64,000 nucleotides of DNA from Octopus sinensis (lineage: Eukaryota). Position 1 is the stretch's first letter, and each line of letters starts with the position of its first letter. Position numbers and translations under genes: made by a program. This document shows positions 1,244-61,910 of the stretch, piece by piece. Where the stretch lies: contig NC_043013.1 of the NCBI RefSeq assembly GCF_006345805.1, forward strand, positions 10,292,001 to 10,356,000, in the 5' to 3' direction. Under the pieces are notes generated by a model, which saw nothing but the letters and a program-made list of their open reading frames with translations, did not search any database and was not told where the DNA came from.

Positions 1244-1437
1244 CATTCAAAATGTGACCGGTGTGTACCGTTGGCGAGTTTTTTCCTCAGTCTTCCCTTC
1301 TCTGGATCTTTCCTATCCTATGTTCCGACGAAGGCTCCGCTCGAAACGTTGAACTTTCATGAGCGTCAATAATACTATATTTATTCCACGACCTCGCGTT
1401 GTTGTGTGCTTTTTTGTGTTCTTGTTTGGATAACTTT
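1244..1437 (+). mobile_element. Short hammerhead-bearing repeat, family HH-A, copy 1 (Penelope pLTR/retrozyme-like)
   Basis: ~200-bp unit TTCAAAATGTGACC...GTTCCGACGAAGGCTCCGCTCGAAACGTTGAAC...CCACGACCTCGCGTTGTTGTG...GTTTGGATAAC with (TA)n on both sides; homologous to copies at 15.5, 48.5, 51.3, 57.2 and 61.7 kb. Confidence 0.7.
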
Positions 1438-3040
1438 ATATATATATATATATATATATATATATATATATATATATAATATCTATTATATATATATATA
1501 TATTATATTATGTGTGGGTGTGGTGTGTGTGTGTGTGTGGGTGTGTATATATGTGGTGTGTATATATATATTATATATATATATATATGTGTGTGTGTAT
1601 ATATATACATATATAATATATGTGTGGTTATATATATATATGCATACGACTTATTTCATACATGCGCACATCGTACACATACACGTACACACGTGACTTC
1701 TTGTCTCTTCAGTACAGTGACATTCAAATGATATTGTTTATGATCCCTTTTCTTCCTTCTTTCCTTCTTTTTTCCTTCCTTTCTTTATTATTGTTGTTGT
1801 TGCTGCTGCTGCTCTTCATCATTTTCGTCGATGTTGTCGTTGTAGTCGTCGTGGCCCGTTGTCGTTGCCTTTTAATTCAGCTACTGTCATCCGGGTATTG
1901 TGGCCTTGCGTGTATAATGTATATGCATGTGTGCATTTTTATATAAGCAGCCGTTGTGTGTGTGATTATGTGTGTGCGAATGTCTGTGTGTGACCCGTCT
2001 ATAGAATCATTGCATGTTACTTGTCGGTGTGTATTTGTATATACACTATAATAATATATATGTAGATATTTATAAGTGTGATCATAATTTGTGTGTATAT
2101 ACGTATGGCATTATGTATTACGTGTTTATGTATGAATGCATCTATGTATATATCATGTATGCATATATGTGTATGTATCTATACAGATATGTATGTGCAT
2201 GTTTGTCATCATTATGTTGTGTATGTGTGTATTTATCATAGCGCTCTCTTTGTGTGTGTTGGGCTCATCTATGTGTATATTTTTCAAAGTCGACCATTTT
2301 GTGCCATTGCACGTATAATGTATATACACGTGTGAGAGTGTGTGTGTTTGCGAGTGTGTATGTGCGTGTATGTGTCACTATGTGTCTACGTTTCAATGCG
2401 ATTGCATATGATTATATATATGTTTTCTGCGTGTCTGACTGTACATATGCATATCTATCTATCTATCTAGCTATATACACACATAATATATATATATATA
2501 TAATATATATATATATATATATATATATATATAATTTGTATGCATTTATGTATATATGTATATATGTAAATATGTATGTATGTATGTATATAGTGTGTAA
2601 AGATGTATGTATGCCCTGTTTCGGTTTAAATTTGTATATGTATATGTGTATGTGTATGTGTATATATCTGTCCTTGCTAGCTTTACAGTGTATACGTGTT
2701 TATGTATGTGAGAGTTTGTGTGTGTATATATGAGGTTTTGTGTACCTCTCTGTATCTGGCAGGATTACTGTGTGTGTGTGTGTTGCTTGTCTTGACCGTG
2801 TGTACGTATATGCGTGCGTTTGTATTAGAGTATTTGTGTGCCACTCTGTACATTGTAATAACTTCTAGTGTGTCTTTGTATGCTTGTATGTGTATGTGTA
2901 TATATGCGCGTGCCTGGGCTGAATCTATGTATGTGTACATATACATGTTTTATCATTGGTTTCATATATGTGTGTATGTACGTAAATACGTGCGATAGTG
3001 TTTGAGTGAGTATGTCACTCTCTACATTTGGTATTATATT

Positions 3041-3380
3041 TGTCTGTATGTGTACGCGTGTGTATTTGTATGTGTGCATATGAGTGAATTCCCTGCCTGT
3101 GTCTATGTGTGTGTGTATGTGTATGTACGTTTTCTCAATGGGTTTATAACTGTCTATGTGTGTGTATGCATACGTGTGCGTTTGTCTCTGTGTGTTTCCC
3201 TGTCTCTCTCTGTCTGTATGGTGTACGCGTGTGTATTTGTATGTGTGCATATGAGTGAATTTCCTGCCTGTGTCTATGTGTGTGTGTATGTGTATGTACG
3301 TTTTCTCAATGGGTTTATAACTGTCTATGTGTGTGTATGCATACGTGTGCGTTTGTCTCTGTGTGTTTCCGTGTCTCTCA
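3041..3380. repeat. Near-perfect tandem duplication, ~171-bp unit x2
   Basis: TGTCTGTATG(G)TGTACGCGTGTGTATTTG...GGGTTTATAAC...GTTTCC starts at both 3041 and 3211. Confidence 0.85.
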
Positions 3381-4069
3381 CTCTGTATTCGGTATTATTG
3401 TTGCCCATATACACACGTGAATGTGTGCATGTGTGTGTGTGTATGTGTGTGCGCATGTGTGTACATGTGTGTGTGTGGTGTGTGTATGTGTGTGTATGTG
3501 TGTGTGTACGTGTGTGTGTGTGTGTGTGTGTTGAAATAAGCCAGGCCAGAAGGCGAGGCATCTTCGACTGAATTTAATCCGTACGTTGTGAAGTAAGTTG
3601 ACATTTTTACGACCATGCGAGTCAACAGAGAAGAGAGCAAGCAGGTGATCTCATCCGGCCGGCCTTCCCCGCAAGACATACATACATATACACAGAGAGA
3701 GACAGAGAGGGAGAAAAAGAAAGAGAGAAAGAGAGAATAAAGAGAGGGAGAGAGAGAAAATAAAGAGAGAGAGAATAGAGATGATGTGGTGATGTGGCTG
3801 TGGTTGTGGCGGTTCGGTGATGTCTGTGTGTGTTCGAGTCACATTTGAGGTGGTGTTGCCAATACAACAGAAACAGACAGAAGCCAACATAAACCACCAA
3901 ACGGATAGCCAAACCAAATCTCAAAATAACAACAGTAACAACTACAACAACAACAACAATAATAATAATGAAAAAGAAAGGAAGAAGAAAAGAAAAGAAA
4001 GAGTAAAAAAGGTCTGAGCCTTCAGTGAGGACGGCTGCTGTTTGTATGGGGGAATGGTAAGAAAGGAAA

Positions 4070-59542: not shown

Positions 59543-59784
59543 TTTGTATATACGTTTCACATCTTGGCTGTTCGATAAAAGAGACCGATAGAATACATAG
59601 AGGGCACAATATCATTTATACTGGAGATGGTGTGTTAGACTTATCACTCAAAGATTTACCCCAGCAGGTTCACAGTGACAAAATGACTGAAAAAATGAAT
59701 ATATATATGTTTTTTTTTTGTGGGTGTGTGTATGTATACTGATATATAATTATATAAATAGAATTATATTAAAGTGTGCAGATA

Positions 59785-60580
59785 TACTCCACGAAAACGT
59801 TGAAAATATACGCCAAGTGGCTCTAAAAACCACACCAGCAATCCGTTAGCACAGGTTGTAAGAGATGAATAAATAAGTAAGATTTGTTAAAAAGGGTTAA
59901 TTATAGACCGGTTTCTGGCTGAGGGATGTAAAATTCTCTGCTCTCATCCGTACCAGATGCCCATATATAAATACATATATTAATACATACCCATACGAAC
60001 AACATATATGCGCACGAATTTATACATATATTCACATGGATACACTAGTTAAATCTAGTTTATTAATCTCAACCACTTGCATTTATGATCAAAATAATAC
60101 CGCAGTGAATATAATTTTATCAGGAGTAAAAATATCTATTTATACATAAAGAAGGATAAAACTATTTTAATGATTTTATCAAATGGCCAGCGTGTAATAA
60201 AACCATGCAGGTGACAATTTATATTAATATGTAATCATACAAATATAATTATATTCAGGTGTGAGGATAAGCACCACCAACACGCTAGAAATAGACGCCA
60301 AACCATCTCAACATTCCGTTAGCACAGGTTGTAAGCGAGTAGATGAATAATTAAGATTTTTTTAATAACAGGTTAATTAGAGATCGATATCTGGTTTAGG
60401 GATGTTAAACACTCTGCTGTCATCAGTATAATATGCCCATAGTATATAAATAGAAATATTTATACATACCCATGCGAACGACATATATTTGCTCGAATAC
60501 ATACATTCGCATTTATACACTAGTTAAATCTTATTTATTCATCTCAACCACGTGCGTTTGCGATCAAAATAATATCGCCG
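59785..60580 (-). repeat. Diverged tandem repeat (473-bp period), each unit with a hammerhead-like motif (family HH-C)
   Basis: CCGTTAGCACAGGTTGTAAG at 59843 and 60316; shared blocks ATACATACCCAT, TACACTAGTTAAATC, ATCTCAACCAC and GATCAAAATAATA; minus-strand cores at ~59900-59956 and ~60376-60432. Confidence 0.75.
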
Positions 60581-61704
60581 CACGTGAGTGGATTTGATAA
60601 TCGAAACCTGAAAGACATCCGTCCTATATGTGTGTGTTTGTTAGCGTGAGCTCGGTGTGTGATGCGTGTGTATGCGTATGGTGTGTCTGTATGTGTACGA
60701 ATGTGTTATGTGTGCGAATGTGCGTGTCTGTGTGCGTGAGTGAGTGAGTGTGTTTATGTCTTTGCGTTTGTGTCTGCCATTTTCCAACACATGACAGCGT
60801 GTGTTGGCTTGTTTATGACTCAGTAACTTAGCGGTTCGGCAACAAAGCCCCCAGAGAGTAAGTATCATACTTTAAAGATTTTAATTATTGGTGTCGATTT
60901 CTTTCACTAAAGTCCTTCAAGGCCGTACCCTAATATAGCTGCAATCGTGTGGTTGAAACACGTGAAGGAAAAGACGAAAAAACATCAATGACCACTGAAA
61001 TTTGTTGCAAAGTATAAGATTACATCTGCGAAAAACCATATCATTATAGTTTATAATACTGCAAAGCACTAGATTTGCTGGAAATTGATGTAAACCTTAA
61101 AAAAATAATAACTAAAATGAGACTTAAATCCTAAATGTGAGTCGAAGGATGCACTTCTGTATTTTTTCAAATGAATCTGTCAAATCCTTATCGATTTTTA
61201 CTCTTATCTATAATGAATTTTCACAATACTTGTGATATATTCTGAATACTTGCGTCTATGCGTACATACATACGTACATACATAGATACGTATATACTTA
61301 CATACATATATACATAAAAGCACGCAAATAAACACAATTTATATATACATATATTTATATAAATATAAATACATATATATATATACATATACATTCACCC
61401 ATTTATACCTGTATATATATATATATATGTATATATATAACATATATAATACAAATAATATATATATAACATATCAAATATGTATAATACGTATGTTTAC
61501 GTATGTGTGTACGTATGTGTATACATAAATTCATAAATGTATATATGCATATCTGCATATTTGTGTGTTTGTGTCAGTGCTTATATTTCTATAAGGAATC
61601 TATCTATCTTTCTATCTATCTATCTATCTATCTATCTATCTATCTATCTATCTATCTATCTATCTATCTATCTATCTATCTATCTATCTACCTATCTATC
61701 TATC

Positions 61705-61910
61705 TATGTTACCGTATATGTATCATTGGCGATTTTCTTTCGCCGTCTTCCCTTCCTTGGACCTTTCCTTTTTCTATGTTTCTGACGAACACCTCCGCTC
61801 GAAACGTTAAATGCTCCTTTATCTTTCCTTTCCTGAGCGTCCAATAACACAATACTTGTTGCACGTCCTCGCGTTGTTGTGTTTTCTCTTTGTTCATATT
61901 TGGATTAAGC
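61705..61910 (+). mobile_element. HH-A copy 6
   Basis: GTTT-CTGACGA-ACACCTCCGCTC-GAAA-CGTT-AAAT at 61778-61812; between (TCTA)n and (TA)n. Confidence 0.75.

Follow-up and report, generated by a model that had tools for sequence, protein, structure and literature searches.

The 64-kb stretch of Octopus sinensis DNA analyzed here (contig NC_043013.1, positions 10,292,001 to 10,356,000; hereafter, the window) contains six hammerhead-type motifs, C(C/T)GANGA...GAAACGT(H), all on the plus strand, with core position C3 at 1325, 15590, 48627, 51344, 57260 and 61782. Fifty block-wise dinucleotide shuffles of the window gave two motif matches in total (0.04 expected per shuffle), and the six related elements proposed in a first-pass annotation are thus confirmed. 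The CCGA core, in which U4 is replaced by C (U4C), is present at 1325, 15590 and 51344, again as claimed, and the CUGA core at the other three positions. The elements are probably solo pseudo-long terminal repeats (pLTRs) of a Penelope-like element (PLE) family encoding a reverse transcriptase (RT) and a GIY-YIG endonuclease, enzymes that likely inserted them at (TA)n with uncut RNA as the template.

Five of the elements are solo pLTR units, 84–93% identical to the better of two pLTRs linked to open reading frames (ORFs) in other loci, which are given here by L numbers. The unit at 1244..1436 (plus strand, U4C, predicted cut after 1350) lies between two (TA)n tracts, has a 1-nt deletion within stem II and is 84% identical to the pLTR of the ORF-linked locus L031. 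The unit at 15510..15731 (plus strand, U4C, predicted cut after 15616) retains both stems and is 86% identical to the same pLTR; its divergent 5' part is common to L078 and L100. The unit at 48544..48744 (plus strand, canonical CUGA, predicted cut after 48653) has one mismatch in stem II, leaving 3 bp, and a G-U pair in stem I; it is 89% identical to the pLTR of L068, which lies upstream of an ORF start. In the unit at 51258..51472 (plus strand, predicted cut after 51370, stems intact, 93% identical to the L031 pLTR), U4C is combined with G7. The unit at 61705..61908 (plus strand, CUGA, predicted cut after 61808) is preceded by (TATC)n and followed by (TA)n; it has lost G10.1 and with it the G10.1-C11.1 pair, and is 85% identical to the L068 pLTR. 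The sixth element, at 57223..57378 (plus strand, CUGA, GUC triplet at 57286), is an older diverged relative (~74% over 54–59 nt) with stem II decayed to 2 bp. Both stems are intact only in the 15590 and 51344 copies, which are both CCGA, and stem II is damaged in all three CUGA copies.

Five elements align with each other over 165–216 nt at 73–88% identity. The element at 57225 aligns with the others only around the core (47–72 nt, 73–79% identity). The start proposed at 15535 is in fact near 15510. Every element finishes with GGAT(T)(A/G)A, and a TA-rich tract lies shortly behind it. The reported lack of a tRNA head and of an ORF is upheld: ARAGORN detected no tRNA genes in the window, as opposed to what a tRNA-derived short interspersed element (SINE) would show, and a tblastn search of the window and of 100 kb on either side gave no remnant of a PLE ORF. 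No host gene was identified by eye among the 153 ORFs of the window. The location of all six elements on one strand (p about 0.03) was considered as a possible signal and is treated as chance, because among 172 listed copies of contig C1 neighbors show no strand bias beyond 2 kb (6/10, 16/32, 21/51 and 23/47, with 7/9 under 2 kb).

The unit can be folded as a type I hammerhead with stem I GUUU/AAAC, the core, one extra A, stem II GAGC-UCC-GCUC, GAA, the palindrome ACGU and U17. This minimal type I layout, recognized already in the first-pass annotation, fits the consensus for metazoan PLE minimal hammerheads (PMC4209133). A palindromic stem III that would permit dimer folding was also proposed; the palindrome is there, but since A14 and U17 are core positions, the pairing part is only ACGU (15.1–16.1) and not AACGTT. 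The core, C3 U4 G5 A6 N7 G8 A9 ... G12 A13 A14 A15.1 ... U16.1 H17, is complete in three of the six window copies, the other three being U4C. In all five subfamily consensuses the extra nucleotide after A9, the G10.1-C11.1 pair and the palindromic, loop-3-free 15.1–16.1 segment are invariant; at position 17 the consensuses have U, A or C, and none has G.

Conservation of the motif exceeds that of its surroundings between subfamilies: 26 of 35 motif columns are invariant in the five consensuses, compared to 6 of 40 and 21 of 43 in the two flanks. The fold is thus constrained between lineages, in contrast to two of the core positions. Within the family (62/70 copies) the mismatch rate is 3.9% in the motif and 5.2% and 7.5% in the flanks, which is weak evidence, as the flanks include subfamily differences. 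Stem covariation is likewise observed. One compensatory change, G-C to C-G, distinguishes stem I of the window family from that of a sister family carrying U at position 6 (A6U); stem I of the CUGA subfamily has a G-U pair and that of the GUC subfamily one U-U mismatch, and stem II is invariant in these. In 30 low-copy motifs of other families, whose rows are not independent, both stems are above permutation: 78 of 120 pairs are formed in stem I versus 42 in permuted data, and 62 of 90 versus 50 in stem II. Minimal hammerheads with the canonical core and another stem II (GGAC/GUCC, GGAU/AUCC, GGCU/AGCC) have 316 exact matches (L313–L342); they constitute several low-copy families with clear stem covariation.

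The covariance-model search recommended in the first-pass annotation was negative. No hammerhead is present among the 150 listed of 399 weak Rfam matches in the window, the listed miRNA matches being microsatellites, and the Rfam hammerhead models gave no match at gathering score in six loci. Minimum free energy (MFE) folding does not produce the hammerhead for the monomer or the dimer, which is uninformative with such short stems. Another conserved motif, TTCCTGAGCG, occupies window positions 15633–15645, about 20 nt past the cut site, and the same place in other copies, and is invariant in all five subfamily consensuses. As the MFE structure of the 15590 copy indicates, base pairing is possible between TTCCTGAGCG and the 3' strand of stem II; the motif may represent a competing fold or a protein site.

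The relation of the units to autonomous elements is apparent from longer copies. The 30 best genomic matches to 51258–51472 have a common 3' end followed by TA-rich sequence and differ in their 5' ends; the longest of them (L031, L032) run upstream via a CA-rich untranslated region (UTR) into RT and GIY-YIG coding sequence. A 68-aa piece of the endonuclease has 11,070 candidate matches in the genome, and among the 150 scored, two are in 1008-codon open frames. One locus, L064, is a complete element, consisting of a hammerhead pLTR, a 1008-codon open frame, a 2.8-kb CA-rich UTR, a second hammerhead pLTR and (TA)n. Another, L063, has an upstream hammerhead pLTR and 949 aa from the ATG. Both belong to a subfamily with a GUC triplet, whose identity to the window copies is about 72%; the GUU type of the window is ORF-linked in L031, L032 and L071. 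At the pLTR/5'-UTR junction, 29 of 30 loci run at least 45 nt into a common 5' UTR, seven of the 30 give a tblastn match to the N-terminal half of the ORF, and both CCGA and CUGA pLTRs are present at such junctions. The ~210-nt unit is thus the sequence that flanks the RT and GIY-YIG ORF upstream and downstream. The suspected PLE link, and with it the expected adjacency to PLE ORFs, is borne out, but a separate non-autonomous family is not, since the window sequence is the pLTR of the ORF-bearing elements.

The L063 protein has the motifs GLRF, DKG (354) and YIDD, a CX4CXXC linker (817) and CxxC between GIY and YIG (854). The Pfam matches of the element protein, RVT_1 (E=0.0018) and GIY-YIG (E=0.018), are both under the curated cut-offs; its Atlas neighbors are RT/GIY-YIG proteins at 0.98. 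Flanking pLTRs around a single ORF with RT and C-terminal GIY-YIG were found together with 5' truncation, partial tandems and microsatellite targeting, as in endonuclease-positive (EN+) PLEs. By its structural features, the unit qualifies as an EN+ PLE pLTR carrying a minimal hammerhead; as a ribozyme the hammerhead is putative, since U4 is missing in the main lineage. The element appears to be of Neptune type, as assigned by its motifs against the published description; Nematis also has a linker zinc finger. Similarly to Neptune-clade PLEs (PMC8557442), the RT is followed by a C-terminal GIY-YIG, with DKG, a CX2-5CXXC linker and CxxC between GIY and YIG, and partial tandems and a microsatellite bias are observed; unlike them, the octopus element has a long CA-rich 3' UTR of 0.7–3 kb.

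Two observations weigh against the reading of the units as pLTRs of these elements. A pLTR was found within 1.3 kb in just three of 30 GIY-YIG loci, and a downstream hammerhead in four of ten longer stretches; the long UTRs probably exceed the stretches fetched. Furthermore, in a pLTR tree of 58 rows the CUGA clade with 48544 and 61705 has no ORF-linked row, and its link to the ORF depends on the pLTR/5'-UTR junction loci. An apparent CUGA copy linked to GIY-YIG (L098) was rejected, as an A6U copy located immediately upstream is the one that owns this ORF.

Several other arrangements were seen. Five same-strand pairs of GUC-subfamily motifs 6.1–6.3 kb apart, among the first 100 matches listed (contig C1), are full-length elements, which suggests that the GUC subfamily is a young lineage. 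In mini elements (L010, L068, L349, L350, L355) the pLTR, 5' UTR and ORF start are followed without a gap by another pLTR, entered at -84 to about -135; they are possibly template jumps or non-autonomous derivatives. In L351, L363, L367 and L368, inverted pLTR pieces lie directly upstream of the 5' pLTR, an inverted-truncated arrangement as described for Penelope. The ORF and pLTR of L064 are covered by contigs of four runs guessed to be RNA; strand, ends and level are unreadable in these, and they were used neither way.

The U4C core was found in all seven ORF-linked GUU or GUC copies with a readable core (L031, L032, L049, L064, L067, L069, L071); in L035, C4 is present and G5 has decayed. 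In the GUC subfamily (1,148 matches in all), 99 of the 100 copies listed have CCGA. Exact 29-mers genome-wide number 6,190 for CCGA and 2,585 for CUGA, with none for controls. The first-pass annotation considered that CCGA may mark an attenuated subfamily. It does not mark a minor one: CCGA predominates among the copies and is carried by the lineage with intact ORFs, and it is not a product of decay; an origin of CCGA as a CpG artefact was discarded, as CpG decay goes from C to T and the GUC copies are nearly uniform. U4 is present in L149, an older ORF-linked relative, in the low-copy families and in published motifs, and by this comparison U4C is likely derived. The pLTR tree leaves the window family unresolved and thus gives no evidence for a single origin of U4C. 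In the sister PLE family (L193–L222), position 6 is U in 13,318 exact copies and another letter in 474. In this family N7 takes all four letters, stem I is CUUU/AAAG, and GIY-YIG lies upstream in four of 30 loci; six copies are located within 100 kb on either side of the window.

U4C is predicted to weaken cutting. In a viroid hammerhead it reduces activity in vitro, yet supports infectivity (PMC3088659), and A6C shifts the metal preference of the phage Bcep176 hammerhead (PMC7151607); the main text of the latter contains no occurrence of A6U. These are likewise natural changes at core position 4 or 6, but in single genomes and with a full stem III, whereas the octopus variants are carried by thousands of retroelement copies. 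The motifs in the available part of Fig. S3 of PMC4209133 all have U4 and A6; its text mentions U3-A8 as a core variant. In the literature searched, neither the window family nor a PLE hammerhead with U4C or A6U was described; a specialized survey of PLE hammerhead variants and supplements may list them. We tentatively speculate, well short of even chances, that the most successful PLE lineages of this genome each fixed a different core change (U4C, A6U) but retained the fold, H17 and the rest of the core, and that selection, instead of removing the hammerhead, reduces its activity or makes it dependent on protein. In that case, the core-variant lineages, together with the sharp 5' boundary described below as a footprint of internal initiation and run-off, would form a natural series for testing the purpose of PLE hammerheads.

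The 5' ends of the units were analyzed in 70 copies selected through a motif close to the 3' end; they are the first 70 among 5,501 matches and all lie on contig C1, with positions counted from C3 and the predicted cut at +27. The 3' end of the unit is fixed, whereas 45 copies start at -72..-86, eight at -56..-70, seven at -10..+67 and ten beyond -86. None of the 70 starts within 15 nt of the predicted cut, and thus the insertions are copied from uncut RNA. A true non-LTR retrozyme, whose tandem units self-cleave, circularize and reinsert, is highly improbable as a source: although a type I hammerhead lies within a short non-coding repeat and a few minis of pLTR, short spacer and pLTR exist (L010, L068, L349, L350, L355), the six copies are dispersed monomers, one of 70 sampled copies is in tandem with another (L265, with TA between), no 5' end falls at the cut, and the hammerhead is of the minimal and not the canonical retrozyme type (PMC7229834).

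The 5' peak lies at TCATTC/TCTTTC. A fixed length of the solo units could be explained as follows. The endonuclease would nick (TA)n, the RT would initiate within the element RNA, where the pLTR joins the 5' UTR, and it would run off at the 5' end of the transcript, about 83 nt upstream of the core, leaving a solo unit of ~210 nt. Any cleavage by the hammerhead would be weak and would require a dimer or the protein of the element, and insertion would not depend on it. In an anole PLE, the RT starts internally in vitro on RNA that spans the pLTR-ORF junction, hammerhead mutants insert normally and cleavage needs protein (PMC11167929); the Penelope promoter lies inside the pLTR (PMC2377424). Together, these two studies suggest that a solo pLTR results when an RT that started where the upstream pLTR ends reaches the transcript start and runs off. 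In agreement, at GUU-type tandem junctions 26 of 29 upstream pLTRs start at -108 or later, at least two of the calls being alignment breaks, and in one short copy (L029, identical to L344) the first letters of the 5' UTR precede the TA tract. We consider internal start with run-off about an even prospect as the source of the solo units.

Several points count against it. Ten of the 70 copies extend beyond -86, although CA-rich DNA has probably produced some false calls among them, and starts at -92..-109 are common among the 30 best BLAST matches. In GUC-subfamily tandems, the upstream pLTR begins between -126 and -710 in seven of eight cases, a spread that one start site leaves unexplained. 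Two sub-peaks, at -78 and -76, sit on A or AT letters, so that microhomology to (TA)n shapes them. Finally, the placement of the run-off start takes TCATTC, at -83, to be initiator-like, as in Drosophila.

The same evidence bears on ordinary 5' truncation of full-length elements, in which the RT from the downstream pLTR stops at a hotspot of TA microhomology or pausing and not at the RNA 5' end. Truncation is the rule for PLEs (PMC8557442), and the A/AT letters of the junction sub-peaks beside (TA)n, the copies that reach 188–721 nt upstream and the top matches starting at -92..-109 would all be expected from it. On the other hand, the part of the unit that most resembles TA (+58..+67) is the first that the RT encounters, and it holds four of 70 ends versus 45 at the 5' peak; no stable hairpin was found just upstream of the peak (-2.1 kcal/mol for -130..-70). 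We regard truncation as a possible but lesser candidate. Rather doubtful is SINE-like self-propagation, by which solo copies of ~210 nt would be transcribed from the pLTR promoter and mobilized in trans by the PLE protein with no need for cleavage. It would account for the sharp unit length and for the excess of solo copies over tandem junctions (5,501 versus 31 exact pattern matches); in Drosophila Penelope, transcription can start from the promoter of the 3' pLTR (PMC2377424), and non-autonomous elements derived from pLTRs have been described (10.64898/2026.07.22.740005). However, both pLTR types of the window, CCGA and CUGA, are also found attached to the ORF or to its 5' UTR, and initiation by the anole protein requires RNA sequence downstream of the pLTR (PMC11167929), which would be missing from a solo transcript.

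The GUU lineage numbers about 23,000 copies in the 2.72-Gb genome, a rough estimate that is biased low, and the unit averages roughly one per 115 kb. The frequency of about one copy per 10 kb given in the first-pass annotation is correct within the window, but not genome-wide. Because 40 arbitrary 10-kb stretches (400 kb) held three diverged matches and no copy of the young lineage, the density in the window is local; the 200 kb flanking the window contain 12 matches, three of the young lineage. In (TA)n the window exceeds the average: runs of (TA)6 or longer number 110 in its 64 kb and 281 in the 400 kb of arbitrary DNA. The reported association with TA microsatellites is supported in the sample of 70 copies, of which 65 have (TA)3 within 60 nt of the 3' motif, compared to 10% of random windows.

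The motif itself is the already published minimal type I PLE hammerhead; the variant core is the part that differs. As in metazoan PLEs (PMC4209133), it has CUGANGA-H, an extra nucleotide after A9, G10.1-C11.1, GAAA, a loop-3-free C-G palindrome, U or C at position 17, a short stem I and a U-rich 5' flank, and the motifs are mostly solo, with few in full elements. In contrast to the motifs given in the available part of that paper, stem II is just 4 bp, and the main lineage and its sister family have U4C and A6U, respectively. The anole Poseidon element PAc (PMC11167929) also has a pLTR hammerhead, an AT-rich target and insertions from uncut RNA. It belongs to another clade, and its internal initiation is demonstrated, while that of the octopus element is inferred. 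In PAc, the hammerhead and the start of the ORF overlap, whereas the octopus hammerhead precedes the end of the pLTR by about 130 nt and the ATG by about 400 nt. Animal non-LTR retrozymes (PMC7229834; 10.64898/2026.07.22.740005) share a short hammerhead repeat related to PLE pLTRs, but they are tandem arrays processed to circles, whereas the octopus units are dispersed monomers starting 72–86 nt before the core. In Octopus vulgaris, PLEs have been annotated, with hammerheads unmentioned in the available part of the account (PMC13282606).

The role of hammerheads in PLEs has been called unclear (PMC8557442), and one reconstituted PLE inserts normally without cleavage (PMC11167929). An intact-ORF lineage with U4C at thousands of sites and an A6U sister family provide matched natural variants in this respect, and the 5' peak provides a genomic test of internal initiation. 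The six window copies themselves are ordinary transposon remnants.

Other repeats are present in the window. A long inverted repeat at 1044–1203 (about 1040–1090 versus 1155–1203), just upstream of the first element, is part of a different repeat that also occurs beside L002. About 50 nt past the second element, at 15782–15990, a small element resembling a miniature inverted-repeat transposable element is inserted in TA and has inverted ends CAGGGTGTCCCAGA ... TCTGGGACACCCTG. Three decayed frames, at 17755–18111, 29306–30131 and 43027–43497, presumably correspond to a Tc1-type transposase, another transposase and the C-terminal endonuclease domain of a LINE (long interspersed element), respectively.

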